A stretch of DNA of 64,000 nucleotides from Acholeplasma sp. CAG:878 (GCA_000432255.1 HF989928.1:17260-81259); one strand, 5' to 3'. Shown: positions 12,963-34,148, counted from the first letter of the stretch. A program made the numbers and translations. Notes: generated from the letters alone by a model not told the origin.

Positions 12963-13385
12963 ATGATAATTAAGTATAATACCAAAGAAAGAGATTTACT
13001 TGCTAGGTTAATGAGAGCTGAAGCTGTTGGTGAGGGAGACCTTGGAATGTTGATGGTTGGTAATGTTGTTGTGAATAGAGCTCTAGCTGATTGTTTAACT
13101 TTCAAAAATGTTACTACAATTACTGATGTTTTGTACCAAGCTAACCAATTTAGTGGTGTTGATAGTCCTTTATTTTTCAGTAGTCCAACAACTATTGAAA
13201 AAAGTTTAGCAAATCGAGTTTTAAGAGGGGATTATTTCTATCCGGCTACTAATGCTTTATGGTTTTATGCTCCTAGAACCGGTGAATATTGCAAGAGTGT
13301 GTGGTATGGTCAAACACTAGCTGGCAGATATAAAAGTCATTGTTTTTACAACCCTGAACCAGGGATTTGTAAAGATATACATTAA
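12963..13385 (+). CDS. Cell wall hydrolase, CwlJ/SleB (Hydrolase_2) family spore cortex-lytic enzyme
   Basis: ERDLLARLMRAEAVGEGDLGMLMVGNVVVNRA signature. RBS AAGAGGTGA. Confidence 0.85.
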   Translation: MIIKYNTKERDLLARLMRAEAVGEGDLGMLMVGNVVVNRALADCLTFKNVTTITDVLYQANQFSGVDSPLFFSSPTTIEKSLANRVLRGDYFYPATNALWFYAPRTGEYCKSVWYGQTLAGRYKSHCFYNPEPGICKDIH

Positions 13386-14011: not shown

Positions 14012-14938
14012 TTAGATTTTTAAGACTTGACCTATACTTAATATATTACTTGTTAAATTATTTTTTCTTTTTATTTCATCTACAGTTGTGTTGTAATTTC
14101 TTGCAATACTATATAAATTATCACCTTTTTTTACTGTATATGTGTTTGCCTTAGTAGATGGAATTAGTAATTTTTGATTGATACTTAATATATTACTTGT
14201 TAAATTGTTTAATGATTTTATTTCATCTACAGTTGTATTGTATTTGTTTGCAATACTGTATAGATTATCTCCTTTTTTAACTATATAAGTTTGATAACCT
14301 TCTGATGGTGTGGGTACTGTTTTTGTAGGAATTAATAGTCTTTGACCTATACTTAAATTAGTAGTTGATAGGTTGTTATAGTCTACTATATCCTTTACAT
14401 CTAGGTTATATCTTCTTGCAATGTTATATAGATTATCACCTGATACTACAGTATAAACTGTATAATCACCTGGTTCGACCGGAACTTCTGTTTGTGGAAT
14501 TTTTAGGACTTGGCCTATATTTAACAGATTACTTGTTAAATTGTTTGCAGCTTTTAATTGTTCTACAGTTGTGTTGTATTTTTTAGCTATACTCCAGAGG
14601 CTATCACCCTTTTTTACTGTATATGTATTTTGAGTTGATGGTAATCCTATATATTCGCTAACTGCTCTAACTACTGCTTCTGCATATCGTTCATAATTGT
14701 TTTTTAACCTATTGGCATCAGCTTCTGTGTCTAGAAATCCATATTCTACTATAATTGGTTCTGTTATACCTGTGTTTCTATGTATAAAATAGTAATCTTT
14801 TGATGTGTTGCTTGGTAATCTTCTTTGATATGCTTTTCTAAGTACTTGGCCTTCCTTACCGATTTCTTCTAAAACTAAGTCTGATAATTCATTATTATTG
14901 CGTAGAGCGTATATTACTTCGGCACCTTCGCCACCTCC
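14012..14938 (-). pseudogene. C-terminal 308 codons of N-acetylmuramoyl-L-alanine amidase (Amidase_3 second half + 4 LysM), separated from its 5' part by the mobile element
   Basis: Own translation gives GGGEGAEVIYALRNNNELSDLVLEEIGKEGQVLRKAYQRRLPSNTSKDYYFIHRNTGITEPIIVEYGFLDTEADANRLKNNYERYAEAVVRAVSEYIGLP, then 4 units of YTVKKGD.LYSIA..YNTTV.E....NNLTSN.L.IGQ.L.IP, then TAA. It contains no ATG or GTG and so is missing from the ORF track. 927 nt is in frame. Confidence 0.9.
14015..14625 (-). repeat. Four tandem LysM-coding repeat units (about 130-160 nt period)
   Basis: Recurrent DNA blocks such as acttgttaaatt...atttcatctacagttgt.ttgta...ttgcaatact..ta.a.attatc.cc. They translate to LysM modules on the minus strand. 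Confidence 0.85.
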
Positions 14939-14958
14939 GGAAAGATTTTATGTGATTA
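14934..14958. other. attL: 5-bp crossover core CCTCC (14934-14938) plus element-side arm TTATGTGATTA (14948-14958)
   Basis: The core is shared with 32943-32947. The arm is the inverted partner of TAACCACATAA at 32920-32930. Confidence 0.75.
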
Positions 14959-15002
14959 GGCTATCATTTTTTTCTTGATTTTACTGCATTTTTATTTTTT
15001 CT

Positions 15003-15056
15003 AAAAATAGTATAGGGGATGGTAAGATTGTGTGATTAACAATTTTACCACCCTAT
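15003..15056 (-). terminator. Long hairpin / terminator after the recombinase gene
   Basis: ATAGGG(GA)TGGTAA...TTACCACCCTAT arms with an inner ATTGT/ACAAT stem. T-rich on both sides. Confidence 0.45.
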
Positions 15057-15065
15057 TTTTATTAT

Positions 15066-16691
15066 TTAATTTATTTCTTCATAATTAGTTTTTATATCTT
15101 CTAGCACCTTAAATCTATATTGAATTTCTATATTTCTATCTTTATCAATATAAATATTTTTTACTAAAGTTTTTATGAGTTCTCTGTTGGGTTCATCTAA
15201 ATTTAAAAGTGATTTTATTTGTTTTTCATGTTTAGCTATTTCTTTTGTATCTTCTTTAATCTGATTTTCTTCATTATCAATTTCATTAATTTTATAATTT
15301 AAGGCTGATATTTGTTTTTCCGTTTGTGTCGACATTCTTGTATAAGTATCAACACTTATTATTCCATTAAATTTGTCATCATATAAAGCATCAGATTTTC
15401 TTTTTAATTCATCAATCTCATTTAATAATTGTTGCTTTTCCTTTTGCCTATCATTCTTTTCCTTTGCTCTATCTTGTAATACTCTTTCAGATAACTCTTT
15501 GATATTTAAACTATCTAAATATTTTTGACAAGTAGTTTTAATAACACTCATTATTTTTTCTTCTAGTTTATCATAAGGAAAGAAATGTGGATAACACAAA
15601 TGTCTTCTTGGATCTCTTGCATATTTATTGCAATTAACACTCCAATATTCTCCATCCTTATAGTTTTTATTTTTTCTATAAAGAACACTTAAAGAATTTC
15701 CGCATTCTTTGCATACAAGTAGATTTTCTAATAATCTTTTTTCTCTATTACAATGAGTTGTTCTTACTCTTGCAGGAGCATTTTGTATTGCTTCAAACAC
15801 TGTCTTACTAACTAGAGGTTCATGAGTGTTTTCTACTATTATCCAAAACTCTTTTTCTAAAGCAACTTTCTTTTGAGATTTATAGCTTAATTTTGTTTGA
15901 ACATTTTGTACCATATCCCCTATATACATTCTATTTTTTAATAATTTATTTACTGAGGATATTGTCCATACATTCACTTTTTGTCTTGAAGATGATTTAG
16001 TATTTTTATACATACTAGGACTTAATACCTTATTATCATTTAAGTATGATACTATATCACTTACTCCAGTTCCAGAAAGAGCCATTTTAAATATATTTTT
16101 AACAACGGGAGCAACTTCTGGATCGGGTATTAAATGTCCTTTATCAAGTGGATCTCTCATATATCCATAACATGGTTTACTACCTATAAATTTACCTTGC
16201 TCTTTTTTATTTTTTAGTATTGAACGAATCTTCTTAGAAGTATCTTTACTAGTCATATCATTAAACAAAGCTTTAAATGGAGCAATGTCATTATTAGCGC
16301 TTTCTAGAAATGTATCAACTTGATCTAGTATAGAAATATATCTAATTTTCTTTTGTGGAAAATATTGTTCTACATAATAACCACATTGAATGTAATCTCT
16401 ACCTAATCTTGATAAGTCTTTCGTGATTACACAATTGATTCGACCACTTTCAATATCTTTTAATAATCTTTGAAAAGAAGGTCTATCAAAGTTAGTTCCA
16501 GTAAATCCATCATCTACATATTCATCAACCAAAGTATATCCACTCATTTTTACATAATCCATTAATAAATTTCTTTGATTGATTATACTTTCACTCTCTG
16601 ACTCATAAGTTTTATCTTCATCACTTTCTGATAATCTGATATATAAACCTACTCTATAAAAACTTGGTGCTTGTATTATATTGTTATACAC
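15066..16691 (-). CDS. Large serine recombinase (resolvase N-domain + recombinase domain + zinc ribbon + coiled coil)
   Basis: VGLYIRLSESDED catalytic-Ser region, VITKDLSRLGRDY, CKECGNSL...CNKY zinc ribbon, and a K/E-rich coiled-coil tail. GTG start is preceded by GGAAGGAG. Confidence 0.93.
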   Translation of the reverse strand: MYNNIIQAPSFYRVGLYIRLSESDEDKTYESESESIINQRNLLMDYVKMSGYTLVDEYVDDGFTGTNFDRPSFQRLLKDIESGRINCVITKDLSRLGRDYIQCGYYVEQYFPQKKIRYISILDQVDTFLESANNDIAPFKALFNDMTSKDTSKKIRSILKNKKEQGKFIGSKPCYGYMRDPLDKGHLIPDPEVAPVVKNIFKMALSGTGVSDIVSYLNDNKVLSPSMYKNTKSSSRQKVNVWTISSVNKLLKNRMYIGDMVQNVQTKLSYKSQKKVALEKEFWIIVENTHEPLVSKTVFEAIQNAPARVRTTHCNREKRLLENLLVCKECGNSLSVLYRKNKNYKDGEYWSVNCNKYARDPRRHLCYPHFFPYDKLEEKIMSVIKTTCQKYLDSLNIKELSERVLQDRAKEKNDRQKEKQQLLNEIDELKRKSDALYDDKFNGIISVDTYTRMSTQTEKQISALNYKINEIDNEENQIKEDTKEIAKHEKQIKSLLNLDEPNRELIKTLVKNIYIDKDRNIEIQYRFKVLEDIKTNYEEIN

Positions 16692-16941
16692 TTACTACTC
16701 CTTCCAATGTGCATAACTTCAATAAGCAATATCATTATACCACAAACTTTTACTGCTTACTATTTTCTAACATCAATTTTAAGTACTCCTCTATTAAATC
16801 AACCAAGTTTTTATCTTTATCGAAAGTTTCAGTTATATTCACTAATCTACACCTCTCCTTTCATTTTATGAAATAAGAACGACTATAAGACTTTATTATC
16901 AAAATTAGAGCATAAAAAAATTAGTTATATTTCAAACTAAT

Positions 16942-17514
16942 CTAGTAATAGAAAATATTATATTCTTTTAATCTATTTCGTTTTCGCTTAACATTTTGAA
17001 GTTCTAATTTGTAAAATTCTAGTTTTTTTAAATAATCTTTACGGAAATAGTTTTCACTTAACCATTTAACGCCTTCTTTAGAAATTATTACTTTACCATC
17101 TTTTAAATACTTAAATGATTGATTATTTCTTTTTTCCATTCTATTAACTGCAACACCAATAACATTTTTACTTCTATTAAAATAACTTCTTAAATCATAT
17201 AAAGATATATCTTTATATTCAAATTTATTATGAGGAAAATTAAGCTCGTCTTCTAATCTTAATATTTGTTTTTTAAAGAAAACAATTTCAGCATCTAAAT
17301 AAAATAGATTGTTATTTAAATAAACTTCTTCTATCCATTCTACAAGTTCCAATTTTAGATATACTACTCTTTCACCATTCTGAGCAAAATGTTCATCAAT
17401 CCATCTCTCATTTGGATGTCTTCTTTCTAATCTTTTCACTAATCTCTTATACTGTTTCTCACTCATATTAAACTTCTGTAAAACACGCCACTTCTCCATT
17501 GATTTAAATTCCAT
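16942..17514 (-). CDS. Hypothetical DNA-binding-like protein with internal duplication (candidate element regulator or RDF)
   Basis: ATG at 17514 (MEFKSMEKW) is preceded by AAAGGAG. Two halves each end in a similar segment: ERVVYLKLELVEWIEEVY and GKVIISKEGVKWLSENYF. No family recognised. Confidence 0.6.
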   Translation of the reverse strand: MEFKSMEKWRVLQKFNMSEKQYKRLVKRLERRHPNERWIDEHFAQNGERVVYLKLELVEWIEEVYLNNNLFYLDAEIVFFKKQILRLEDELNFPHNKFEYKDISLYDLRSYFNRSKNVIGVAVNRMEKRNNQSFKYLKDGKVIISKEGVKWLSENYFRKDYLKKLEFYKLELQNVKRKRNRLKEYNIFYY

Positions 17515-17785
17515 ATTTCTCCTTTCATTTCTTATCACATTTTAGGTTACAATTAAATCCTCTTTTTAGGTTACATAACCGTGTAATACAATATATCAAG
17601 CATGGTGTATACACACCCATCTAGCTTGTTAGGGAATATCCCTAAAACCCACTAATAATCTCCGACAGTTTAGAAATTTTTTAATCAAATTTTCATTTAA
17701 TATTTCAACTATTTCATAAAATTCATTATCAATTTTTAAAAATATAACTCACCCTCTTTCTTTGATAAAAATAAACATGGACATG

Positions 17786-17811
17786 AAAAAAGAGAGATAA
17801 AAAAATCTCTC
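17786..17811 (-). terminator. Rho-independent terminator inside the element's intergenic region
   Basis: Minus strand GAGAGAT-tttttt-ATCTCTC followed by T6. Confidence 0.65.
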
Positions 17812-17845
17812 AAATAATCCTTCTTTATAATTACCCTATATTACC

Positions 17846-17874
17846 ATAATACCACAAAATAATAGGAATTGCAA
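17846..17874 (-). promoter_or_regulatory. Promoter-operator module A (extended -10 sigma-A type)
   Basis: Minus strand TTGCAA-17 nt-(TGg)TATTAT. Overlapped by the inverted repeat TCCTAT-N22-ATAGGG (17834-17867). Confidence 0.6.
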
Positions 17875-17991
17875 TGGCACGATTTTCATCAAATGCTTCA
17901 CTATCCATTATAAAATAAGGGCTTGTAAAAGAAAAAATAATTTGCAAAAATACAAATTATTTCTATCATCTTACAACTTTCCTATATTATC

Positions 17992-18020
17992 ATTTTAGCA
18001 CAAAATCATAGGACAGTCAA
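17992..18020 (-). promoter_or_regulatory. Promoter-operator module B (extended -10 sigma-A type)
   Basis: Minus strand TTGACT-17 nt-(TGc)TAAAAT. Overlapped by the inverted repeat TCCTAT-N22-ATAGGA (17980-18013). About 75% identical to module A, 146 bp away. Confidence 0.65.
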
Positions 18021-18078
18021 CGGACATGATGCAATATTAACCTTCTTTTCCTGAAATTCTATTGAATTTATATATTAT

Positions 18079-21000
18079 TTAATGCACTCTAAATTCATCA
18101 ATTAATACACCTGCAATTTCATTGTCATGAGCTATCAATATACATAAAATATCTTCATAAGACTTAATTAATTCTTCATCTAATTTTATTTTATCGCTAT
18201 ATTTTGTAAATGATTTAATAATTATCATATTAATAATAATATCTACATCGCCTTTTAATTCTTTTTCTAGAATATTATAGTTACTATTGTTGTAAGATAA
18301 GATTTCTTTTACACTAATTAAAATTTCAGGTAGTAATTCATCAACATTCAGTAAATATAAAGATTTAATAGCATCCCTTATATAATAAATTCCGTACTTT
18401 GAAAACTGCCTGTTTAAAAACATTTTATCTTCATAGCTATAACTTGTTTTTATCTCCGAAGGATTCCACTTACAATCTCTTGATGCATTAAAGAAAAGAC
18501 ATTTATATAATTGCTTTTTTACTTTTTCATTTTTAATATTAACAATTCTTTTTTCAACTTCTGATATCTTCTTTTTACAGATATTTCTCCTAGAAGCATT
18601 ATTATAAGAATCATAAAATTCAGCAATAAAACCACCCATAATTTTCTGATAAAATTCTATTGCTTCCTCTTGAAATATTTCAAAATTAATATCTTTAAAC
18701 AAAAAATCAATCACATTTTCATTATATTCTAATGTGTAAATTAATTCTTTTTGTATAAAAGAAACTAATTCAAATTCACTATATGTATCAATGATTTCAT
18801 AATATAGCCTATCTTCTTTACAAGAGTCATATATATTTATCATGCATTTCAACAATTCTTTTAGAATTTTTTCAAAAGATTTGTTACTTAAAGTCATTCC
18901 ACAATTAACAATTTTAAATAGTAATTGTATATCATAATCATCAATATTGAACTGATCAAAATTTAATTTTTTTTCATCAAACAAATAATCTTGTATAACT
19001 TGTTCTTTTAAGCTTTCATACTTTTTTTCGCGACTTTCTTCAAGTTGATAATCCACACCAGAAAGATTGGGCACAAAATTAGGCTTAAATACAAATCCAG
19101 ACTCTTTAACATACGTAGCATTATATTTTTGATGATTCATTTCGTCTTCTGAAAGTTTGATGATAGTATTAAATATAATTCTAGATAAGTTAGAATTACC
19201 TAACAAATACTGAGATATTTTTAATTGTATTTGTTTAATAATACCATCATGTGTATCATTTATAATGCATTTCAAAATTATTGTTTTAATTTTATTTTTT
19301 ATTTCATCACTTGTATCTTCATATAATTGACCTAATAAAATATTAATTAATTGTGGTTCAAAAATAAAAACTTCGTTTTCAAATATTTTTTCCAGTCCAG
19401 TAATCCAGAAATCACAAAAATTATTTCTTTCTAATGTAGATAATTTTTCTTCTTTTAGGGCTATGGAGATAAAACATATTAAGATGGATTCATATCCACT
19501 AGTTCTATCACTATTGCTATTTATAATACCATTTAATTCTTCAATACAATTTAGGAGCTTATCTCTATCGTTTTTTCCTCTTTTTCTATCTCTAATATAA
19601 TTATCAATTTTATTTTCTAATTCAACATAAATCTCATTTTGTTTTTCATGTAAATCTGTCACTTTTTTTGCTTCACCAGTAATTTTAGTTTCAATCATTG
19701 ATGTATTTTTATCAACTTCAGTTATTACAGCATTTCGCATATCGATTTTTTGTATTTGAAGATAATTAATTGCATTATCCTCAGTATTAGTAATAATAGT
19801 ATATAAATAATCCAATATTTTAAAAACCCGTTTTTGAAAATCAAAACCAAAACTAATTTGCAAACTTATAGCATAATTTTCAATATGAATTGCACATTTT
19901 TTATCTAATTCATATCTATATTTTATTTCTGGCAACCCAATTTTTAATAATAATTGTTTTTCTAGCATTTGTAATTGAGAGTTATTTAAATATAAGGAAT
20001 ATCTATGAGTATCCCAATTTATAATATCAATACTCGTAACTAAATCTAAGGCATATCCAGGAAACTCATTTTGAAAATGTAGTCCTATATTCTCTATTAC
20101 TGTCAATAAAATTACGTTATTTGATTTTGAATAAATTTTATTTTTAATATTTAATAGTATCTTTTCAACATTTTCTTTATCAGATAAATTCTGTTGAATA
20201 AAATTAATTATGGAATCTTTAATATAAAATACAATATCACTTAACAAATCAGGAACATATCCGTCCCTTGTACCAGCCATCCACATATTATTATTTCCAT
20301 AATATTGCTTAATTTCATTTGTATCAATAAATTTTATTTTTACTTTAAGAACATTGTCGGGTGAGTTTTCTGCATAAACGTCAACAGAATTATTTATAAA
20401 ATCAATTGCCCAATCTAATCCAATATAAAAGTTTACTCTAAAAAGATTCCACAACAAAACATTTTTATTTGGTGTTTGAAATGAATACTTATAATCTTCA
20501 CATAATCCATAATCATTCTCGACATTACTATGATAATAAAATTCATTATTTGAGTTTTTTTTGATCCACAGAGTATTAGCAATAAAACACATTTCATGTG
20601 GCAATTCTTTAACAAGATTATAGTGTGCATTTTCTGAAATCCATTGTAATATTTCTTCCAACATTCTCTGATTTTTTTTACTTTCGCTGTTATAATCCTC
20701 TAATAATTTAGTGAAAAAGTTCTTTAACCATTCAGAACAAGTTTCTGAAAGTTTGAAAAGTACAACAAGATATTTATCAATATATTCAATGACATTGAAC
20801 CACTCTTTATCGACTTTTTGGAAAGCATCATCAACAAAAAATTCTAAAATTGAACAAACAAGTATATCAATTTCTTTTAATCTGTTATTGTTTTGATTTG
20901 TATAGTCTAAACAAAGTTTTGCAACTTTAGACTCATTAATAGCATTTTTTAAATATAACTTTTCTTGAGCAATTATTTTTATTATATTTTTACGACTTCC

Positions 21001-22821
21001 ACCAGTTGGAATCAATATAGCTTTTGGAAATTCATTATTAAAATCAACTAATTTCAAATCGAAGCAATAAATATTGCAAATATCTATAAATTCATCTAAT
21101 AAATTATTATCTAAAATATTAAATATATTTTTTTCGAAGAAATTGTCATTATAATTTGATTTTAATATTCCAATTTCAGTTTGCTTTTTCCACTCGTTAG
21201 ATACGCAATTAGAAAATACCAAGTTATTTATAAATTTATCCTGATTTTCTTTAGTAAATAATTTATTAGAAATCCATATTTGATATCTTCTATAGACACA
21301 TCTACCCATTTTTTCTATTTTTTTATAAAAATTATCATATTTCCCTTTACAAGAGATAAACTGTTCATCAAAAAATTGTTCAAAACATATGTCTTCAAAT
21401 ATATCATATTTTAAACGAATACCCTCTTTATTACGTATAACTATTTCTTCTGAAATTAAAGCAGAAATAATATTAGAATCAATATCTTTCTCACTGACTC
21501 CTAAAATAAATTTTTTTGCTCTGTCAAAAACTATTTTTTCTATTGCCTTTCTAACATTAGATACTTTAATATTATATTTTTTAGTTTCAGACTTCAAACA
21601 AATTATATTTTCCCAAATATAATATCGGAGTTTATTAATATCATCTATACAGTCTGGATTAATATTATATGACATAATGATATTTATATAAAAAGGTATT
21701 TTAAGCAAATCGTTATAGCTATTATTTTGTGCTAACTTGTTTATAATTGGGTATTTTTCTTTAATTAAATTTAACTCTTTTGATGAGATTTCGTCTATCT
21801 CATACAATTTAATCATATAGTTAGATTCAAGTTTTATAAATGCATTATTATCATTTGATCTACATGAAGTTATTATATGTGCATTCTCATATTTTGATAC
21901 TGTGGAATATAATGATTCTAATAATTCTAGTTTAGTTTTTGACGCATCAGCAATAAATTCTAAAGCATCTATAAAGAATACAATTCTTTTACCATTTAGA
22001 AAATCTAACATAGTTTTAATATCAAAATCCCAAATACTATTTAGATGAGTTTCTTCAACAAATCTTTCAGCACGTGCAAATAAGACCAATTCCTCATCAT
22101 CAAGGTATTTTTTGCATAAAACTGACTTCCCGCTACCAGCAATCCCTTGAATGGATATAAATTTATTATTATCATCTTTTATTTTTTTCAAAAAATCTGA
22201 TCTATCAATTTCATATTCGCCATTTATTTTTACATCTATATTTTTTATACCAACATTTTTGCTAATATCTAAGGCTTCACTAAATTTTAGTGATATTTCG
22301 TTGTAATTTTCAAATTCTTGTTTAAGTAATATGAAGATATCTTCTTGAAATTTTATATCATTTTTTGATCGTGTTACAATATCTAGAGTAGTTATTAAAT
22401 TCTTGCTTTTATCAAAAGGAATATTACCAATTTGATTTTTTCCAGTATAATTTTTAATTTTTGTAATTTTATCATTATGTAACACAAAGAAATAGACTTC
22501 TGTAATTTCAGAATATTTATTATCCTTGTTATCTCTGACATTTTCTAAAGTACTTTTAATCTTATTTTCCACATCAAAAGTTGTACTTACTTGAATATAT
22601 ATTTTTTTATCTTCTGATATCAAATCAAAATAAGGAAAATTACATCTCTCATCATTTAAATTATAAAATTTTTGATTAAAGTATAGTTCACAAATATTCT
22701 GCGCAAATAATTCAAACATTTTTGCATTATCAAATAGTCCATTTTTATTAGCTAATTTTATCTTTTGTTCATATGCAGACATATAATCTATAATAAAATC
22801 CATTCTCTCTTTTGAATACAT
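18079..22821 (-). CDS. Giant STAND (NACHT-like) P-loop NTPase with SMEK-like N-terminal domain and about 1150-aa helical C-terminal region; candidate antiphage NLR/Avs-like protein
   Basis: Walker A ISIQGIAGSGKS (DNA about 22124-22150). Walker B RIVFFIDALEF. HIITSCRS and LLKIPFYINIIM resemble the NACHT sensor and winged-helix motifs. N-terminal NAKMFELFAQNICELYF...NFPYFDLISEDKKIYIQVST resembles the SMEK-domain pattern (from memory). Adjacent to Type III R-M. Confidence 0.7.
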   Translation of the reverse strand: MYSKERMDFIIDYMSAYEQKIKLANKNGLFDNAKMFELFAQNICELYFNQKFYNLNDERCNFPYFDLISEDKKIYIQVSTTFDVENKIKSTLENVRDNKDNKYSEITEVYFFVLHNDKITKIKNYTGKNQIGNIPFDKSKNLITTLDIVTRSKNDIKFQEDIFILLKQEFENYNEISLKFSEALDISKNVGIKNIDVKINGEYEIDRSDFLKKIKDDNNKFISIQGIAGSGKSVLCKKYLDDEELVLFARAERFVEETHLNSIWDFDIKTMLDFLNGKRIVFFIDALEFIADASKTKLELLESLYSTVSKYENAHIITSCRSNDNNAFIKLESNYMIKLYEIDEISSKELNLIKEKYPIINKLAQNNSYNDLLKIPFYINIIMSYNINPDCIDDINKLRYYIWENIICLKSETKKYNIKVSNVRKAIEKIVFDRAKKFILGVSEKDIDSNIISALISEEIVIRNKEGIRLKYDIFEDICFEQFFDEQFISCKGKYDNFYKKIEKMGRCVYRRYQIWISNKLFTKENQDKFINNLVFSNCVSNEWKKQTEIGILKSNYNDNFFEKNIFNILDNNLLDEFIDICNIYCFDLKLVDFNNEFPKAILIPTGGSRKNIIKIIAQEKLYLKNAINESKVAKLCLDYTNQNNNRLKEIDILVCSILEFFVDDAFQKVDKEWFNVIEYIDKYLVVLFKLSETCSEWLKNFFTKLLEDYNSESKKNQRMLEEILQWISENAHYNLVKELPHEMCFIANTLWIKKNSNNEFYYHSNVENDYGLCEDYKYSFQTPNKNVLLWNLFRVNFYIGLDWAIDFINNSVDVYAENSPDNVLKVKIKFIDTNEIKQYYGNNNMWMAGTRDGYVPDLLSDIVFYIKDSIINFIQQNLSDKENVEKILLNIKNKIYSKSNNVILLTVIENIGLHFQNEFPGYALDLVTSIDIINWDTHRYSLYLNNSQLQMLEKQLLLKIGLPEIKYRYELDKKCAIHIENYAISLQISFGFDFQKRVFKILDYLYTIITNTEDNAINYLQIQKIDMRNAVITEVDKNTSMIETKITGEAKKVTDLHEKQNEIYVELENKIDNYIRDRKRGKNDRDKLLNCIEELNGIINSNSDRTSGYESILICFISIALKEEKLSTLERNNFCDFWITGLEKIFENEVFIFEPQLINILLGQLYEDTSDEIKNKIKTIILKCIINDTHDGIIKQIQLKISQYLLGNSNLSRIIFNTIIKLSEDEMNHQKYNATYVKESGFVFKPNFVPNLSGVDYQLEESREKKYESLKEQVIQDYLFDEKKLNFDQFNIDDYDIQLLFKIVNCGMTLSNKSFEKILKELLKCMINIYDSCKEDRLYYEIIDTYSEFELVSFIQKELIYTLEYNENVIDFLFKDINFEIFQEEAIEFYQKIMGGFIAEFYDSYNNASRRNICKKKISEVEKRIVNIKNEKVKKQLYKCLFFNASRDCKWNPSEIKTSYSYEDKMFLNRQFSKYGIYYIRDAIKSLYLLNVDELLPEILISVKEILSYNNSNYNILEKELKGDVDIIINMIIIKSFTKYSDKIKLDEELIKSYEDILCILIAHDNEIAGVLIDEFRVH

Positions 22822-22965
22822 CCTAATCACCCTAACAACTTATTTAATAATATAGAAAAATTTTTTTTATTTTGATTTATCACTAAAGATTTAGTATTTA
22901 CTTTTTTTAGCCTTTTTTACAAAGAATATCTCGAATATAAAATCTATACCATTTTTTATAAAAAT

Positions 22966-25620: not shown

Positions 25621-27361
25621 AAAATTCATCCTCCATATCATTGGAAATATCATTTACAACATTTAGATTATAATTATTTACATTAAAAACACATTTATTT
25701 AATAACATCTCTGGTATTTTTTTTATCATTATATTTTTGTACTTATTTAACAGTTCTTCATCATAAGCAGTACACGCAATAACAAGATACTCTTCAGGAA
25801 GCATAGAACCCTTTATTTTTTCTAGTGTCATTGAATTTAAAAATTGAGTTGTTACATATAAATAACTATTTTCATTTCCTATTGATTGTTTCCAAAAAAT
25901 TTCTTTATCAGGATTGTATTCAAAACCTTCATGGAGTGCAACTGATCTTGCTAGCATTTCTGGATTGTAGTTTTTATTAATAACCATTTCCCCAAAAGAA
26001 TCTTCATTTATTAAAGTTGGTGCAAGTTCATAAAAATTGTAACCTCCTCCACCATTCCAATTAACAATCGAGGTAATTCCACCATTATCTTTTCCATCAA
26101 TGATTAAATTTAATCTTTTTATACAATGCGTATATACATGTTCACCCATCTCAATTCCTATCCAATTTCTATTCATTTTATGAGCAACCGCTGCTGTAGT
26201 ACCACTACCTAAAAATGAGTCTAAAACATAATCTCCTTCATTTGTACTCATTTCTATTATCCTGTTTAACAATAATTCTGGTTTTTTACCATTAGGAAAT
26301 TCTACTTGACCTTCTTTTGTTAAATTATTAAGATTTATTCCATCCCATAAAGTTCCTTGTAAGTCTTTCTTTAACCATTTTCCATCTTTATATTCTGTTA
26401 CATCTTTTAGCCAAGTAAGTAATCTAAATTTATCGCCTTTATAGAATTGCTCATATTCATTTCCTTTGTTTTTACCAGTCTTAGGAATATATTTGATGCT
26501 AATTACATCTGAATGTTTAATGCCTTCTAATCTTTCCATTACTCTTGGTCTAATTGAAGATTGTGGCATTGCAGTTGTATGAATTCGATCCATATACTTA
26601 TAATATACTTCATTTTCTGAAATATTTTCTTGCTTTGCAATTTGAGATATTGACATAAATTTTGCATTTTGACGATTATATATTTTAATTTCATTTCCAT
26701 CGCCATCTACTGTTGATGCTAGATATTCAGGGTCTCCTTTTTCATATAATACCGACGTATATTTCCAGCTAATACCTTCATCTTTATATTTTTTTACCAA
26801 TTCACATATTTCTGTATACGCATATGCATTTTGTAGCCATTTAAAATTATCATATTTTTTAGTATATGTAAGGATAAATTCAATATTCTTTTTTAATCTT
26901 TTATCTTCCCCTCCACCACTTGCACCTGCAATATTCTTCATTTTAACTGTTATAGTATTCAAATAATTATTTCTACCAAAAATTTCATCACATAATACTT
27001 TCAAATATGCATATTCATTATCATCAATTTGAATAAATATTATACCATCCTCTCTCAATAATCTCCGCAAAATAACTAAACGTTCCTTCATTAGGTTTAG
27101 CCAAATACTATGTTCTAGATTATCATTATAATGTTCAAATGCACTTCCAGTATTATATGGAGGATCTATATAAATACATTTTATCCTTTCTGAATAATCC
27201 TTTTCTAATGCTTTCAATGCTAAAAGATTGTCCCCATGAATGAGAATGTTTCGAGAATTTTTATCACCATAACTTCTTTCATCATCCTTAATCAATATTC
27301 TAGGTTCTACCTTTTCTTCATTGTTTTTTCCTATCCATGTTAATTCTAATTTACTTTTCAT
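25613..27361 (-). CDS. mod: Type III R-M Mod subunit, N6-adenine DNA methyltransferase
   Basis: CIYIDPPYNTGSAF (motif IV) and DSFLGSGTTAAVAHKMNRNWIGIE (motif I), in beta-class order. ATG at 27361 (MKSKLELTWIGK). Confidence 0.93.
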   Translation of the reverse strand: MKSKLELTWIGKNNEEKVEPRILIKDDERSYGDKNSRNILIHGDNLLALKALEKDYSERIKCIYIDPPYNTGSAFEHYNDNLEHSIWLNLMKERLVILRRLLREDGIIFIQIDDNEYAYLKVLCDEIFGRNNYLNTITVKMKNIAGASGGGEDKRLKKNIEFILTYTKKYDNFKWLQNAYAYTEICELVKKYKDEGISWKYTSVLYEKGDPEYLASTVDGDGNEIKIYNRQNAKFMSISQIAKQENISENEVYYKYMDRIHTTAMPQSSIRPRVMERLEGIKHSDVISIKYIPKTGKNKGNEYEQFYKGDKFRLLTWLKDVTEYKDGKWLKKDLQGTLWDGINLNNLTKEGQVEFPNGKKPELLLNRIIEMSTNEGDYVLDSFLGSGTTAAVAHKMNRNWIGIEMGEHVYTHCIKRLNLIIDGKDNGGITSIVNWNGGGGYNFYELAPTLINEDSFGEMVINKNYNPEMLARSVALHEGFEYNPDKEIFWKQSIGNENSYLYVTTQFLNSMTLEKIKGSMLPEEYLVIACTAYDEELLNKYKNIMIKKIPEMLLNKCVFNVNNYNLNVVNDISNDMEDEFYE

Positions 27362-27503
27362 AATATACACCACACTTATAATTTCTCTTCTAATCTTAAA
27401 TACTTATTTTTATCTAATTAAAAAATTTTTTAAATTAAAATTTTTTGGATGATTGCTAATATTAATTATACTATAAAAACTGGCAAAAATCGACTTTTTA
27501 TGA

Positions 27504-28539
27504 TTAATTAGTATCAATTATTGTTTTTCTTAATTCTTCTTCTAAAGAATGCGATAATTGTATTAAATATTGTTCATTAAAATCAATATCAGTTCGATTT
27601 GACATCTTTTTTTCAATAAGATCAAATATTTCATTTCTATCTTTTTGAATAGCAATTCTATCAAAAATTAATCCAGCCCATGAATTATCAAAATAATGGC
27701 AGCCCATAAATATTAATTTTAAATTTTTATCATTTGTTGCAAAGAAAATTTCTTTATCTGAAAAATGGTAGTGAAAATTATTGATTGATGACAAATAAGA
27801 GATATCCCAAGCCTAATTTTTACATCCCCTAATAATTTTTTCAAAATCTTTACTTTTAATATTTTTTGGTGCCTTAATAGTCGAATAGTTAGTGAATAAT
27901 AAAATTGCATAGGTAATATCATACATAGATAATTTTAAATTATCATAATACCAATCAAGATACTTTAAAATTTTGTTTTTTGTAGATAATTTAGTTAGAA
28001 AAACCTCTGCAATTTTTAAAACCGAACAATAACTAAGTAAATATGTAATACTTTTATTTTTATAATTTGCATGGCGGTGAAATTTTACTGATATATCAAA
28101 TTTTTGTAATTTATAGTTCCCATTTTTTAAATGATTTAAAAAAACTAAACTTGGAATTTCAGATAGATAAGTCAACAACTCATTTAATTGCCTAATGACT
28201 TCTGAATTTTCTGTTAAATCTCCATATTCATTCATTGCCAATCCAATATTATATTGTAATCCATTACAATTACAAAACATCAAAAATGATAGTAGCATTA
28301 TCATATTATCTTCTTTTTTTTAATTCACCATTTTTAAGATAATCAAACAACATTGAAGTTATATTTCTATCTAATACAATAATTTTGTCTTTCTTATTCA
28401 TCAAATATTCTTTGTAATGAGTAAATTTTCCTTCCATAGCATAATAAGGATGAAAAATAATTTGAAAAGAATTAACTAAATCAAATATATCATTTAAATC
28501 ATTATCCTCTAAAATAATCAAATCGTTCATACAAATCAC
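27504..28539 (-). pseudogene. Decayed single gene (about 340 codons) now read as three ORFs of 77, 163 and 96 aa; function unknown
   Basis: ORFs 28306..28539 and 27813..28304 are joined by removing one A from an A8 run (28314-28321): ..NGELKK|EDNMIMLL... ORFs 27813..28304 and 27504..27794 are in the same frame, separated only by one TAG (27813-27815): ..RGCKN*AWDISYLSSINNFHY... Confidence 0.5.
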
Positions 28540-28711
28540 CTCAAAACATTAGCATAGCTATTCTTATAATAATTAAACAGTTAATTATATTATACCATGT
28601 CTATATGGTTTTATCGTCTTTATCTATTTGTTTTAATAATTGATTTTAAATAATTTATTATGAATTAAAAACCGTATTCGGAAATCCACATACTCGTAAT
28701 GGTGCACTGGA

Positions 28712-29008
28712 TTAATTTTCATATGGTTTTTCATAAATTATATATTCATAATCAAATCTGCCATTTTCATCTCTAGCTTCAATAACTTTTAAATATTTAT
28801 TAACTTTTAATTCATTTAATATTTTTCTAATAGTATCTCTACTTTCAACACAAATACTTGATAATCCTAATATAGAATAGTCCCAATTATCTGGTAATGA
28901 TAACATTAAAGATAATAAACCCTTTGCCTTTAAACTTAATCTTCTATCCTTCAAATGATAATTTCCCATAACTATATATCCTTCTTCTCTATTTGATTTT
29001 ATTTTCAT
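28712..29008 (-). CDS. Winged helix-turn-helix DNA-binding protein (HTH_36-like, common on Firmicute mobile elements)
   Basis: LSLKAKGLLSLMLSLPDNWDYSILGLSSICVESRDTIRKILNELKVNKYL pattern. Confidence 0.65.
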   Translation of the reverse strand: MKIKSNREEGYIVMGNYHLKDRRLSLKAKGLLSLMLSLPDNWDYSILGLSSICVESRDTIRKILNELKVNKYLKVIEARDENGRFDYEYIIYEKPYEN

Positions 29009-29036
29009 ATTCTCATATCCTTTCTTTTCTCAAAAT

Positions 29037-29059
29037 AAAAAAGCCTATATAAATAGACT
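29037..29059 (-). terminator. Terminator after the rnlB-like gene
   Basis: Minus strand AGTCTAT-ttat-ATAGGCT (one G-U pair) followed by T6. Confidence 0.5.
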
Positions 29060-29086
29060 TTACGCTCAACAAACAATTTCATAAAT

Positions 29087-29440
29087 CTAATTGTTTAATA
29101 CATAATTTATTGTTGATTTTGTTAATGTACCATTATTTAATATATCAACATGTTCTTTTAAATATTGTTTAACAGTTTTTTTACTTGATTCTGATACATC
29201 ATTTGGATTTATGATTATACTATTATAGCTTCCTTCTTCAAAGTTTAATAATACATACCTATTAAATGAATATCCATTTCGCAAAAACAAATCTACAATA
29301 ACAGAGAATTTATTTCCTTGAGTTTTTGAAAGTTCATTGTATATATCTTCAGTAAAAAAATATAAGTCATCAATATTGTTCAAAAAAATATAATTTTTAT
29401 TTATATCCTCTTCAAAATTAAAAATTTCATAATCGTTCAT
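29087..29440 (-). CDS. RnlB-like antitoxin
   Basis: 117 aa, directly downstream of the RnlA-like gene as in E. coli rnlAB. VIVDLFLRNGYSFNRYVLLNFEEG versus E. coli RnlB ILFDLLCANGPEWNRFVTLEMKYG (recalled sequence). Confidence 0.6.
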   Translation of the reverse strand: MNDYEIFNFEEDINKNYIFLNNIDDLYFFTEDIYNELSKTQGNKFSVIVDLFLRNGYSFNRYVLLNFEEGSYNSIIINPNDVSESSKKTVKQYLKEHVDILNNGTLTKSTINYVLNN

Positions 29441-29452
29441 AAATATTCTCCT

Positions 29453-30499
29453 TTATTTATAAAAAACATTATAAGATTTTTCAATATTTTCAATAATTTC
29501 ATCAACTATTTCTTTTGCTTCTTGCCAATTTTCAATTATTCTTGTTTGTGATGGTTCAATTGTTGCATGCAAGAACACATTTCTCTTATTTGAATATATT
29601 TTATTTAATTTTATTAAATATTCTTTTTCATCATTACTTATTAATTTATCATTTTCAATTTTACTTGAATTTCCTCTATCTTTATAAAACATTGAAAATT
29701 TATTTTTTTTATCAATCTTATATGAATACTTATTCACTAATACTTTTGTTAAGTAACCTTCTAATGTTTTAAATGCACCTGTAACACAACAAGTATAATC
29801 CTCACTTTCTTTTATTGTTTTAAGTGATGTGATTGATCCTGAAAGAGATTTTATCAATGCTTCATCTAAAAAAGTATATGAATTTGATAAATTTGCTTTA
29901 ATTGTTTCTCTTATATCAGCTGTTGAAATTTTTGTTGTTGTAAACATGTTGTTTATTTCTATAATACTATCAAGAGATACAGAAGATAATTGAGATAATA
30001 AGGTCATTATTATACCAAAAGTTTTAAAAGGTCTACCTTGAATCATAACTTTATTAGTTTGAGGGTAAAATGTTATATCAATATGATCTTTATTATACCC
30101 AATAAAACGAATTCTATTATTACTATAATATTTAATTTGAATTTCAGAAGAAAACTCATCTTCAACACATTTAATAAGTTCTTCAATTGTTTCTTTATTA
30201 CATGAAAACACTGTTTGTTTGGGTTGAGCACTATCAATAGGATAACCTAATTGAGCTAAATATTTTATTAATCTATTAGATTCTTCAGCATTTTTTCCAA
30301 TAGGCATCATTTTTACAGACATCTTTTTAACCTTAACATAAAATTTAACTTTGCATTGTTTTCCTGATATAAAAAAGTTGCATGTATATTCTTCTTTACC
30401 TTGAACTTTAATATAATTACTAAAAACAAAATCAATATTCTTTTTAGAATAATCTTTGATATAAGTTTCTATATCATCTGGATTTATATATACTTCCAT
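29453..30499 (-). CDS. RnlA/LsoA-family toxin (HEPN-type endoribonuclease)
   Basis: 348 aa. TNKVMIQGRPFKTFGIIMTLL versus RnlA TGKLQIQGRPLSCYRVFTFNL. DYTCCVTGAFKTLEGYL versus DYCMLLYPELRTIEGVL. Rx4H motif is RNVFLH. Confidence 0.75.
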   Translation of the reverse strand: MEVYINPDDIETYIKDYSKKNIDFVFSNYIKVQGKEEYTCNFFISGKQCKVKFYVKVKKMSVKMMPIGKNAEESNRLIKYLAQLGYPIDSAQPKQTVFSCNKETIEELIKCVEDEFSSEIQIKYYSNNRIRFIGYNKDHIDITFYPQTNKVMIQGRPFKTFGIIMTLLSQLSSVSLDSIIEINNMFTTTKISTADIRETIKANLSNSYTFLDEALIKSLSGSITSLKTIKESEDYTCCVTGAFKTLEGYLTKVLVNKYSYKIDKKNKFSMFYKDRGNSSKIENDKLISNDEKEYLIKLNKIYSNKRNVFLHATIEPSQTRIIENWQEAKEIVDEIIENIEKSYNVFYK

Positions 30500-30501
30500 T
30501 A

Positions 30502-31815
30502 CTACTTCACTCCTTCAACACAAATTGCTTCTGTTTTTTCATTATCATTTATTATTATTTTATATTTGACTCTTTTGCCCTTTTGTAATAATTGTTTATT
30601 ACCAATAACACTACGCATATTAAAATATATATTATCTTCATTATTATCTTGCTTTATAAATCCCGAATATCCATTTTTCAATATCTTATCTATTTCACCA
30701 AATAAATATTCATTATCATTTTGTTCAATATATTCTCTTGCTATAGATTTTAATTGATACATATTTGGTTTTTTGGTAACATCTAAATCATATTCAGATA
30801 TATAATATTGTAATTCCTCTGATAAATTCCAACCCATTAAATTTCTAAAATAAGCACACGCTTGATAATATTTTATGGCATTATCTTTTTTACCCTGCGA
30901 TTCCCAACATAATCCCAAGTTATGCAATAAGGTCACTTTTGTTTCATCAATTAATTCATTCTGAATAGCTTTGCAATTATACAATAAACTCTCTTCAAAC
31001 TTCCCAAAGCTATAGCAAATATTTGCAAGTTTATGCCATAAAAACCAGTAATTTTCTTTTTCTGCAAATTTTTTATAATTTTGAAAATCAATTTCTCTAT
31101 TACTAGAAATCATACACTTTGAATATAGTATTCTACCTGTAATCCAAATTTTATTTTTATAATGAAATTTTTTAATTATTTCTAACGCTTCTTCACCAAT
31201 TAAAATACATTTTTCATATTGTCCTATTTTTTCATATGACTTAACCATATTTTGATAATAAAATTCCTTGGACGATGCTTGTTCAAACTCGTCTTCTCCT
31301 ATTTTTGTTGTAAAACATTCCTCAGATAATATTGTTGGATTAAGCTTTTCTAACCATTGCACAATCTTTTCTTGATTACTTCTAGATGTTAGTGAAGATG
31401 GTTTATTGTTATACACTTTTACAACTTTTTTGATAGTCAAAACATATGGTGTAAGAATTTCATTAGTTCCTTCTCTTTGTACAGAATGTTTAATAATTAA
31501 TTCAGCCATTTTTATGAATTCTTCAAAGTTAGACTCATCATTATCTATATAATCTTTAATATATATGTCATATACACACCAACATAAAACCGATATTACA
31601 TAACTGTTTTTTCTTATATATGAATCTTTAGGAATTTTAGAAAACTCACTTAAAAAAATATCTGATTTATTACATTTACGCAATGAATTACCATACTCTG
31701 CAAAAAGATTATGATCATCCTTATTAGAAGAATTCCATATTTTTTTATATAATACTAACGCATCATCAAAATTTTTATTATTATAAAATTCTTTTGCTTG
31801 ATTCCTTTCGTTCAT
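30502..31815 (-). CDS. TPR-like repeat protein with C-terminal cold-shock/OB-like domain
   Basis: Helical repeat body. C-terminus GEIDKILKNGYSGFIKQDNNEDNIYFNMRSVIGNKQLLQKGKRVKYKIIINDNEKTEAICVEGV fits the CSD pattern G.V...G.GFI...DIF.H...V....L..G..V.F. Its stop lies 2 nt before the rnlA-like ATG, with the RBS GAAGGAG inside its last codons. Confidence 0.6.
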   Translation of the reverse strand: MNERNQAKEFYNNKNFDDALVLYKKIWNSSNKDDHNLFAEYGNSLRKCNKSDIFLSEFSKIPKDSYIRKNSYVISVLCWCVYDIYIKDYIDNDESNFEEFIKMAELIIKHSVQREGTNEILTPYVLTIKKVVKVYNNKPSSLTSRSNQEKIVQWLEKLNPTILSEECFTTKIGEDEFEQASSKEFYYQNMVKSYEKIGQYEKCILIGEEALEIIKKFHYKNKIWITGRILYSKCMISSNREIDFQNYKKFAEKENYWFLWHKLANICYSFGKFEESLLYNCKAIQNELIDETKVTLLHNLGLCWESQGKKDNAIKYYQACAYFRNLMGWNLSEELQYYISEYDLDVTKKPNMYQLKSIAREYIEQNDNEYLFGEIDKILKNGYSGFIKQDNNEDNIYFNMRSVIGNKQLLQKGKRVKYKIIINDNEKTEAICVEGVK

Positions 31816-31907
31816 AATATCAGTCCCCCACAACAACTTAATATAAGTATAACATATATCTTGCTAATTTTAATTTTTTATAGAAAATACACATCAAAAA
31901 TTTTATT

Positions 31908-32828
31908 TTACAGTTCTTTAGGACAATTTGGTTTATAATTAACATCATTAAATCCATAAACTTTTTTACAATCATTACAAATGATAGCAATAAAATCTAA
32001 ACCATTAATATTGTGTCCTTCACCTTTTTCTATAACTATATTATCTCCTTTACATATAGGACAATATTTATAATCCTTTTGACTGCATGCATCTCTAACT
32101 ATTTCATAACCATTATGAAAATCGTATTTGGGAATAAATTCTCCTGTATCAACACTTTTAATTCTTCCAAACATAAACTCTAACTTATCCACAGTTTTTT
32201 CCAAATGATAATGTCCACAATACCATTTATCATAATCTAATCTTTGCTCTACTTCATTTAGAAAATACTCCATAGATTTATCTACTGCTATTTGTGGTAA
32301 ACTTAATTTAAAACTTTCTTTGGGTTCATATTTTAATGGACAAGTATGAGACAAAATTATATCAACATGTTTTCCTGAATACTTGTCTAATATATCTAAT
32401 CTTTCTTGTTCAGTTAATTGTTCATCTTTAAACCAAGGATATCCTTTACTTATCCTATAATCTTTATCAATAGAATAAGCACCACCTATTACTAAAATAC
32501 TTTTACCATCGATATTATAAAGTTCTCCATTTTTAGCAAATATTAAATTAGGATATTCATCTTCTACAAATACTTTACCACCAAACATTTCTACTTCATG
32601 ATAACTTGAAATGTTTTCTGGTCTTTCTTCATGATTACCTTGAATACAGAAAAATTTAAAATTATATCGTTTTAATCTTTTCTTTAACTTTTTATCATAT
32701 TCGTCTAAATAATAATTAATACCCACATAGCCTAAGATAATCATGATATCATCTTCATTTAATCCTAAATGACCGAATCTATAAAAATCTCCGTGAGTAT
32801 CACCAGTTATATATAACATTCTTTTCAC
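31908..32828 (-). CDS. Metallophosphoesterase (calcineurin-like) with C-terminal double CxxC zinc ribbon
   Basis: LYITGDTHGDF, QGNHE, ILSHTCP, CGHYH. C-terminal CPICKGD...CNDCKK. Confidence 0.8.
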   Translation of the reverse strand: MKRMLYITGDTHGDFYRFGHLGLNEDDIMIILGYVGINYYLDEYDKKLKKRLKRYNFKFFCIQGNHEERPENISSYHEVEMFGGKVFVEDEYPNLIFAKNGELYNIDGKSILVIGGAYSIDKDYRISKGYPWFKDEQLTEQERLDILDKYSGKHVDIILSHTCPLKYEPKESFKLSLPQIAVDKSMEYFLNEVEQRLDYDKWYCGHYHLEKTVDKLEFMFGRIKSVDTGEFIPKYDFHNGYEIVRDACSQKDYKYCPICKGDNIVIEKGEGHNINGLDFIAIICNDCKKVYGFNDVNYKPNCPKEL

Positions 32829-32919
32829 CTCTCATTTTTAAAGTAATTTGATATATCTATTATACCATCATATCCAGTAAAATAAGAAGCTTATTAAAGT
32901 TATACACTATGCCTAGAAT

Positions 32920-32947
32920 TAACCACATAATACGCGTCCTCGCCTCC
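32920..32947. other. attR: element-side arm TAACCACATAA (32920-32930) plus core CCTCC (32943-32947)
   Basis: See attL. The arms are a 10/11 inverted repeat, 26 nt apart once the ends are joined. Confidence 0.75.
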
Positions 32948-33202
32948 TGCATTTATGTGATTAGATATCACTATAACATCTTTATCATTTCCAAAAGCAT
33001 CTAATATTCTATTAACTCTATCAGTAGGATTAACCGTTTCATCACTATTTCTAGTTAGTTTAACAGGTATCCCTAGTTCCCTAAACCTATCATACATGTA
33101 TTCAGATATAGCCAAAGTCATGTTTTTTTCAGTAATTCCATTACCTAATGCACCCGAATCTTCCCCACCATGACCAGCGTCTATTACAATCTTTCTATTC
33201 AT
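32943..33202 (-). pseudogene. N-terminal 86 codons of the same Amidase_3 gene (the ORF continues 14 codons into the element before TAA at 32900)
   Basis: MNRKIVIDAGHGGEDSGALGNGITEKNMTLAISEYMYDRFRELGIPVKLTRNSDETV...VISNHINAGG, then unrelated EDAYYVVNSRHSV*. RBS AGGTGA precedes the ATG at 33202. No signal peptide. Confidence 0.9.
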
Positions 33203-33281
33203 TATAATCACCTATAATAATGTATGAAAAAAAGAAAAATAAGTTAATACAAAAAAACAGGCAACAAAATACCCGTTTTAA

Positions 33282-34049: not shown

Positions 34050-34116
34050 AACTATCTCCTTCTATTGTACTGCTAGAATTATTATATAACATTATTGAAT
34101 TTTTGCATAGAGTAAG

Positions 34117-34145
34117 ATTTATCTAGTTATGTCATATTGTGTCAA
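34117..34145 (-). promoter_or_regulatory. Candidate sigma-A promoter upstream of spo0A
   Basis: Minus strand TTGACA-17 nt-ATAAAT. A near-0A-box ATCGACA lies just upstream (about 34166-34172). Confidence 0.4.
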
Positions 34146-34148
34146 GTA

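Follow-up and report, generated by a model that had tools for sequence, protein, structure and literature searches.

The subject of this work is a 64,000-nucleotide stretch of one strand from Acholeplasma sp. CAG:878 (GCA_000432255.1 HF989928.1:17260-81259), referred to as the window, in which a gene for a cell-wall amidase of the Amidase_3 family is divided by an inserted element that carries a large serine recombinase (LSR) and a set of anti-phage defence genes. The divided gene spans positions 14,012 to 33,202, counted from the first letter of the window, and a preliminary description of this DNA had likened the arrangement to the intervening elements that are excised from sporulation genes. 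Here we describe the gene and the element, then the relatives of both and the promoter-type sequences associated with them, and finally weigh the explanations that they admit.

The divided amidase gene and the inserted element

Both parts of the amidase gene lie on the minus strand, 18 kb apart. The 5′ part, identified with tblastn and Pfam (32943..33202; 260 nt, comprising codons 1-86 and two further nucleotides), encodes MNRKIVIDAGHGG…SNHINAG when read from 33202 to 32943 and ends in the core GGAGG at attL, after which the frame enters unrelated sequence; the open reading frame (ORF) called at 32900..33211 is a chimera of this part and the unrelated sequence. The 3′ part at attR (14012..14938; 927 nt, read from 14938 to 14012) starts with the same core, opens with GGEGAEVIYALRNN and holds the remainder of Amidase_3, four LysM modules at its end and the stop codon, all without a single methionine. 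The core appears as CCTCC on the plus strand at both junctions (14934-14938 and 32943-32947), and when one copy is kept the joined gene is 1182 nt long, that is 393 codons and a stop in one frame. The reconstructed protein matches positions 1-173 of the 174 in the Pfam Amidase_3 model across the join, followed by four LysM domains, and since the Amidase_3 domain already begins at residue 5 (residues 5-179) there is no signal peptide. What the preliminary description had said of the gene, namely that it is split, that its halves join in frame and that its C-terminal part combines a lack of methionine with four LysM modules, is confirmed to the base.

The inserted element (14939..32942, minus strand) measures 18,004 bp between the two core copies and has a GC content of 24.6%, against 26-27% in its flanks. 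Its ends provide the two arms of a predicted attP, the P arm with the core at 14934..14958 (TAATCACATAAAATCTTTCC-GGAGG, minus strand) and the core with the P′ arm at 32920..32947 (GGAGG-CGAGGACGCGTATTATGTGGTTA, minus strand), and once joined (junction …AATCACATAAAATCTTTCCGGAGGCGAGGACGCGTATTATGTGGTTA…) they form TAATCACATAA-N26-TTATGTGGTTA, an inverted repeat that pairs at 10 of 11 positions and has the last GG of the core exactly at its dyad centre. The predicted attB is 33 nt long (AATCACATAAATGCAGGAGGTGGCGAAGGTGCC). The GGAGG that had been proposed as the shared core stands for the window genome, but across 27 reconstructed pairs of attL and attR the bases common to both at the junction are only GG, positions 1-2 of codon 87, as would follow from the 2-bp crossover expected of an LSR. 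Each sub-lineage of the recombinase has palindromic attP arms of its own, some of them perfect over 17 bp (for example GTTACACTTTGACCATC and its complement). The attB sits within the conserved HxNAGGGEGAE motif of the amidase, at Gly-87, and one site is therefore usable in species whose amidases are only 50-70% identical. Taken together, the att geometry fits that of an LSR site, in agreement with the earlier interpretation of the joined ends as an attP with the core at its dyad.

The recombinase (541 amino acids, aa; 15066..16691, minus strand) lies 127 bp inside the attR end of the element, just where it had first been placed, and its Resolvase, Recombinase and Zn_ribbon_recom domains (PF00239, PF07508 and PF13408) all score over the Pfam cutoff. 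The catalytic motif YIRLS is conserved, with R19 and S21 invariant in the alignment, and the protein matches the integrase family phrog_95 in PHROGs (4e-99).

Reading onwards from this end, with every gene on the minus strand, the LSR is followed by a micro-ORF encoding 30 aa (VNITETFDKDKNLVDLIEEYLKLMLENSKQ; 16750..16842), a 198-aa protein with no assigned family (16942..17538), an Avs4-like NTPase of 1583 aa with SMEK_N and STAND regions in Pfam (18079..22830; PADLOC Avs4, 1e-28 over positions 83-1560 of 1570), a type III restriction-modification (R-M) pair recognised by Pfam and PADLOC (22966..27373; Res 22966-25653, Mod 25613-27373), several small ORFs, an HTH_36 protein akin to the N-terminal domains of replication initiators and DnaD-like proteins (28712..29008), the RnlB antitoxin and RnlA toxin found by Pfam (29087..30499; RnlB 29087-29440, RnlA 29453-30499), a fusion of TPR and cold-shock domains (30502..31836; PADLOC PDLC01170) and, at the LSR-distal end, a metallophosphoesterase (31908..32828), a gene that related elements also have at that end. 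The cargo is dominated by recognised defence systems, and by its gene content the element can be classed as an anti-phage defence island. This upholds the original view of it as defence cargo rather than a prophage: searches of the element with Pfam and PHROGs gave no phage structural, capsid, tail, terminase, packaging or lysis genes and no conjugation genes, no Mob/relaxase gene was detected in it, and it lacks TnpV. Between the Avs4-like and the 198-aa genes lies a non-coding gap of 540 bp (17539-18078), in which Rfam gave nothing at gathering thresholds.

Uninterrupted alleles and related elements

A search for uninterrupted orthologues in related genomes had been suggested as a check on the split, and it was successful: 24 database proteins, each exactly 393 aa long, are 99-100% identical to the reconstructed amidase. 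The contigs that encode such an intact allele have the same neighbourhood as the window without the 18 kb (PGK, TIM, spo0A, the amidase, a 180-aa gene, a convergent cwlJ-like Hydrolase_2 gene, a pilin-like gene and prfA). Two of these contigs hold an exact copy of the predicted attB, and two others a copy with one base changed. As intact alleles of the predicted length stand in the same synteny, the split is not a matter of chance.

The window's species also has a different element at the same codon, with an LSR of 524 aa that is 59% identical to that of the window and the junction …CGACTTCGGGGG|TGGCGAAGG. Other elements at this codon, in the window's species or a very close relative, were seen in loci L005-L008 (for example L006:1934-4735) and L024. 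Those of the L006 type have a 524-aa LSR, a 61-aa micro-ORF that overlaps the LSR start and a C-fragment ORF beginning with MPTFHDFGGGEGAEV, and in L024 an LSR of 79% identity stands beside a 96%-identical amidase. Empty sites are common in the window's species and coexist with occupied ones, and at least three different elements occur at this one codon.

To survey the wider family, one genome per GTDB species was scanned, which returned 526 relatives of the LSR. Relatives exist in hundreds and densely fill the range between 97% and 80% identity, and their contexts have the same layout, in which differing cargo, a gene of ~190 aa, the LSR and a LysM-containing fragment follow one another. The best 80 of the 526 come almost entirely from gut metagenome-assembled genomes of 'uncultured Bacilli', with one closed 1.31-Mb chromosome, and some of them carry the labels Mollicutes, Tenericutes, Erysipelotrichaceae and Clostridium sp. 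CAG:433 and CAG:1193. Downstream of LSRs at least 45% identical to that of the window (45-97%), the C-terminal part of the amidase starts exactly at residue 88 in 61 of 74 loci, and in eight of the remaining 13 the sequence ends less than 3 kb downstream; near LSRs of 43% identity or less, no amidase was found in the species-representative loci.

Both amidase halves are present in 27 loci. The split codon is identical in all 27, with the N-terminal part reaching to residue 87 and the C-terminal part starting from residue 88, and the elements are 6.5-18 kb long. The halves are open (C-terminal parts in 27/27, N-terminal parts in at least 23/27). Only the LSR is common to all of these elements, while HTH_36 occurs in 16 and TnpV (PF14198, 5e-37) at the LSR-distal end in 14, and the cargo of the relatives consists mostly of defence genes (type I, II and III R-M, Mrr, GmrSD, OLD/AAA_15 and a MutH-like restriction endonuclease), with Bro-N and Fic-type genes in some of them.

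The identities of LSR and amidase are incongruent, as in the host already mentioned that combines a 96%-identical amidase with a 79% LSR. By this evidence the elements are passed horizontally from species to species, and the family is no fixed, domesticated relic, and a vertical domestication such as that of skin was rejected for the same incongruence.

Some loci depart from the simple layout. A second insertion site exists in the same amidase gene (L060:1647-3290, L070:21-960 and L014:1-130, of which L060 is from the closed 1.31-Mb chromosome), where an LSR only 29-32% identical to that of the window ends ~20 nt before an amidase fragment starting with 'HGG' (residue 11, in the motif DAGHGG), and the gene is therefore in three pieces in those genomes. 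An intact tandem paralogue of the amidase lies 1-1.5 kb downstream of the split copy in two loci (L027:1997-4322 and L038:7236-8791), so that some species could tolerate the interruption through redundancy. Two LSR genes of the broad family are found within ~10 kb of each other in L037, L055, L077 and L082, an arrangement that points to elements in tandem, or one within another, at the amidase site or close to it.

Promoter-type sequences at the amidase gene and the micro-ORF

Promoters of sigma-K have a consensus of AC at -35 and a CATA-type -10 box, and those of sigma-E have the same -10 but ATA at -35 (PMC3789822). Upstream of the amidase in the window stands the sigma-K-type sequence ACTTATTTTTCTTTTTTTCATACATTA (33218..33244, minus strand; AC-N16-CATAnnnTA), separated by 4 nt from the ribosome-binding site (RBS) AGGTGA. 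In the 27 species, whose sequences upstream of the amidase are otherwise unalignable, CATAnnnTA is found at -23..-29 in 26, against 10 of 562 controls, the controls being the other RBS-preceded gene starts in the same loci (p=4.5e-36), and the full AC-N16/17-CATAnnnTA is found in 18 of the 27, against 1 of 562 (p=1e-26), although these Fisher tests, and that for the micro-ORF below, overstate independence since the upstream sequences are homologous. Across the 64-kb window the strict sigma-K form, that is the full motif with RBS and start, occurs at the amidase only, and the geometry of CATAnnnT with an RBS occurs at five places: the cwlJ-like gene, dacB, the amidase, the micro-ORF and one intragenic site. 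The last of these (10755, minus strand, with RBS and ATG) lies inside a prmC-like methyltransferase gene (10504-11205) and is probably due to chance.

The cwlJ/sleB-like Hydrolase_2 gene (140 aa; 12963..13385, plus strand) lies convergent to the amidase as its conserved neighbour in ~30 species, and has CATAnnnT 3-5 nt before its RBS in 22 of 25. Together with dacB, which has the same geometry in the window, it was used as a positive control, as we take the B. subtilis counterparts of both to be mother-cell genes. At these two genes of the window the box stands 3-4 nt before the RBS, and such closeness would imply very short mother-cell leaders in this clade, with predicted transcription start sites at or just before the Shine-Dalgarno sequence. 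The position of the amidase next to spo0A, to which the preliminary description had drawn attention, holds in the window's species, but this adjacency is absent outside it, where the cwlJ/sleB-like gene is the conserved neighbour instead, and it was discarded as a meaningful feature. In the window spo0A (TIGR02875, 258 bits) is preceded by pgk-tpi (33282-36049, minus strand); the usual arrangement before spo0A in Bacillus and Clostridium is spoIVB-recN.

These features make it likely that the amidase is a cell-wall hydrolase produced late in the mother cell under sigma-K. It shares with CwlC and CwlH of B. subtilis and CD1898 and CD2184 of C. difficile an Amidase_3 domain, the lack of a signal peptide, C-terminal peptidoglycan-binding repeats and a sigma-K-type promoter, and those four sigma-K-dependent amidases are presumed mother-cell lysins (PMC3789822). 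The likeness is one of regulation and architecture only, and the repeat type differs, being SPOR-like in CwlC and LysM here. The proposal of a CwlC-like candidate mother-cell lysin is therefore kept as far as the missing signal peptide, the wall-binding repeats and the sigma-K-type footprint go, but not as orthology: no NCBIfam equivalog scored over its cutoff (CwlD, 66 bits against 221), which leaves orthology to CwlD or CwlC unsupported, and the best match among solved structures is the amidase domain of Cwp6 (3e-12).

Within the element, the micro-ORF is found upstream of the LSR in 44 loci, has an RBS of its own and shows synonymous variation in the alignment of the region upstream of the LSR. 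Its homologues are 27-61 aa long, follow the pattern NI[TK]ETF…[DN]L[IV]xEY[IL]K and stand directly upstream of the LSR even where the LSRs are only ~50% identical; the majority stop 56-87 nt short of the LSR start, and those in L006 and L085 overlap it. The micro-ORF has no match in PHROGs. No gene other than this one and the LSR itself follows the recombinase from one sub-lineage to the next, and for this reason we consider it a candidate recombination directionality factor (RDF), for which the known examples from intervening elements are 53-72 aa long (PMC10747680). The 198-aa gene was ranked below it for this role, as it is conserved no further than the closest sub-lineage (LSR at least 79% identical; 3/27 elements by clustering), and its product has no match in Pfam, PADLOC, PHROGs or NCBIfam.

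Directly upstream of the micro-ORF RBS stands a -10 box of mother-cell type, CATAAAAT (16863..16870, minus strand). A strict sigma-K scan of the 27 element interiors had given scattered, non-conserved matches, and the conserved signal was recognised after the micro-ORF had been found and the motif relaxed to CATAnnnT, which is present at -23..-29 in 25 of 27 distinct sequences against 19 of 562 controls (p=7e-30); around this box the sequence is not conserved between sub-lineages. The LSR is preceded by a separate extended -10 box of sigma-A type (TGnTATAAT), TGTGGTATAAT (16734..16744, minus strand), which is conserved in the sub-lineage.

Possible excision in the mother cell, alternatives and known systems

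The explanation towards which we lean, by a small degree, is that of a non-phage family of integrative elements whose excision from the mother-cell chromosome reconstitutes the amidase during sporulation, in the manner of skin, SPbeta and gin. The LSR would integrate at the GG of Gly-87, in the HxNAGGGEGAE motif of a signal-peptide-less Amidase_3-LysM gene, and in vegetative cells and the forespore the element would stay integrated and supply its Avs4-like, type III R-M, RnlAB and TPR-cold-shock anti-phage defences. In the mother cell, a sigma-E/K-type promoter directly before the micro-ORF, as candidate RDF, and the adjacent LSR would trigger excision between attL and attR, and downstream of its sigma-K-type promoter the 393-aa ORF would thereby be whole again, but solely in a terminal cell. 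With excision confined to a terminal cell, the germ line would keep the island. The split with its att sites, the intact alleles, the cargo, the target specificity throughout the family and the promoter footprints are shown by the sequences, whereas we infer the mother-cell excision, its timing and cell type, the sigma factor involved, what the micro-ORF does and how the amidase functions.

Several points weigh against this explanation. In B. subtilis cwlC is dispensable alone, so that an insertion which never leaves the gene might be tolerated. The promoter of the micro-ORF has no clean match to sigma-E (ATA) or sigma-K (AC) at -35, its CATAnnnT contains TAnnnT and may thus be compatible with use by sigma-A, the L006-type sub-lineage, which occurs in the window's species too, has no CATA box before its 61-aa micro-ORF, and the LSR has a sigma-A-type box of its own in the window's sub-lineage. 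LSRs 96-97% identical to that of the window occur in hosts where the catalytic part of the amidase is 55-69% identical; many insertions may therefore be recent, and for this reason the open halves were given little weight as a sign of selection for continued function. A scan of the JGI metagenomes and IMG/VR with the attP patterns of the window and GTTACA sub-lineages gave 0 matches, a weak negative since circles are rarely assembled and the two collections were not calibrated for how many integrated copies they contain. Finally, the hosts are uncultured and their sporulation is predicted: among such orders of uncultured Bacilli there are families for which sporulation has been predicted (PMC10868615).

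Many of the same observations can be accounted for by an ordinary mobile defence island, for which a conserved amidase motif serves as a broad attB, a dispensable hydrolase is knocked out and excision serves transfer only. We regard this as a serious possibility, if a somewhat unlikely one. It agrees well with the horizontal spread, with the presence of three or more elements and of empty sites at one codon in one species, with the variable cargo and the TnpV and HTH_36 backbone genes that recall Tn4451-type elements, with the sigma-A-type box of the LSR and with the failure to find attP in the collections scanned. It leaves unexplained why a mother-cell-type -10 box is kept before the micro-ORF across LSRs of ~50% identity in surroundings that do not align, why the target gene has a sigma-K-type promoter, and why a second, unrelated LSR lineage is found in the same gene. 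Against it also stands that the C-terminal part of the amidase is decayed in 0 of 27 species.

It is improbable that the element is a phage satellite or a defective prophage which entered a lysin-like gene, in the way that skin and SPbeta are classically pictured. The match of the LSR to phrog_95, the resemblance of the HTH_36 protein to phage replication initiators and the Bro-N and Fic-type genes of some relatives are what could be said for it. However, Pfam and PHROGs showed no genes for capsid, tail, terminase or lysis in the window element, the elements reach only 6.5-18 kb, and the amidase stands in conserved synteny of the core chromosome. The LSR family is nearly absent from IMG/VR, where a single contig reaches 51%, and the closest LSR in phage records is only 34% identical, a figure for phage records that does not extend to SpoIVCA and CD1231. 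A phage origin was rejected on the lack of structural genes and on this near-absence from viral collections. That the contig is chimeric and joins unrelated DNA inside the amidase gene by an assembly error is next to inconceivable: nothing specific speaks for it, the same architecture turns up with base-precise junctions in dozens of assemblies made independently, one of them a closed 1.31-Mb chromosome, and the att geometry is that of an LSR site.

Excision in the mother cell, towards which we lean, has precedents in three of the sporulation gene-intervening elements, a group to which vfbin, vrin and yin also belong. One is skin, which lies in the mother-cell gene sigK and whose precise excision restores the ORF. 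Like the present element, it is an LSR element within a coding sequence (SpoIVCA in B. subtilis; CD1231, with the RDF CD1234, in C. difficile), and in C. difficile a small RDF is under sigma-E control and the recombinase constitutive (PMC5025042), which is paralleled here by a micro-ORF with a CATA box and an LSR with a sigma-A-type box. The target of skin is a sigma factor, whereas here it is a cell-wall amidase, so that excision would not gate the sporulation programme, and unlike skin the element described here, for which excision is predicted, is not derived from a prophage, carries variable defence cargo and is horizontally mobile. SPbeta in spsM (SprA/SprB) is excised specifically in the mother cell and kept in the spore genome (PMC4191935), but it is an active phage of 134 kb with a second, SOS-driven route of excision, whereas the present element lacks both phage genes and any evident SOS module. 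Where defence cargo takes the place of a prophage, the nearest precedent is gin in gerE of B. cereus ATCC 10987, a non-prophage island with an R-M system and serine recombinases that is excised during sporulation (PMC5595907). It has three serine recombinases and a recJ homologue and was reported from B. cereus strains and B. toyonensis BCT-7112, whereas the present family has a single LSR with a micro-ORF, a modular defence load and a spread over at least 60 species-level genomes. The transposons Tn4451 and Tn4453 (TnpX, an LSR, and TnpV) resemble the present family in being driven by an LSR, in the TnpV of 14/27 relatives and in the excision as a circle that would be expected here, although the window element has no TnpV. 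Tn4451 is not known to aim at a single conserved codon within a sporulation gene.

The open-access literature that we searched describes no intervening element within an amidase gene, and as far as that literature goes an LSR-integrated, non-phage family aimed at one amidase codon is previously undescribed. The novelty lies in the gene that is targeted, in the clade of hosts and the breadth of the family, in the modular cargo of defence genes and in the micro-ORF; the principle is already known. A wider proposal, which we put forward tentatively and hold to be rather unlikely in full, is that modular defence islands of small-genome gut Bacilli 'park' in a late mother-cell amidase, into which two unrelated LSR lineages insert at two different catalytic motifs, and are released by an RDF of ~30 aa under sigma-E/K.

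Were mother-cell excision to prove right, the island would sit in the germ line at no cost and be lost only in a terminal mother cell, and the amidase would join sigK, spsM, spoVFB, spoVR, gerE and yabG among the sporulation genes rebuilt by excision of DNA. The phenomenon would then extend from cultured Bacillus and Clostridium to dozens of species of uncultured gut Bacilli with reduced genomes, the mobility of defence islands would be tied to a developmental rearrangement in which a gene of a terminal cell offers a cost-free docking site for anti-phage cargo, and the micro-ORF product of ~30 aa, if it serves as the RDF, would be the smallest one known. The natural triplets of LSR, attB and attP, of graded divergence on one conserved site, together with the candidate micro-RDF, are potential integrase tools, and the promoter footprints give a first sequence-level handle on the mother-cell sigma regulons of an uncultured clade.

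Two further observations concern genes of the window outside the element. The dacB gene is followed by a gene for an spmA-like 'Gate' protein and by a 166-aa ORF without a Pfam match (50343-52475, minus strand). A tRNA-Trp gene (CCA; 12789-12863, minus strand), the sole match of Rfam and ARAGORN, lies between the pilin-like and cwlJ-like genes and is not an att site.

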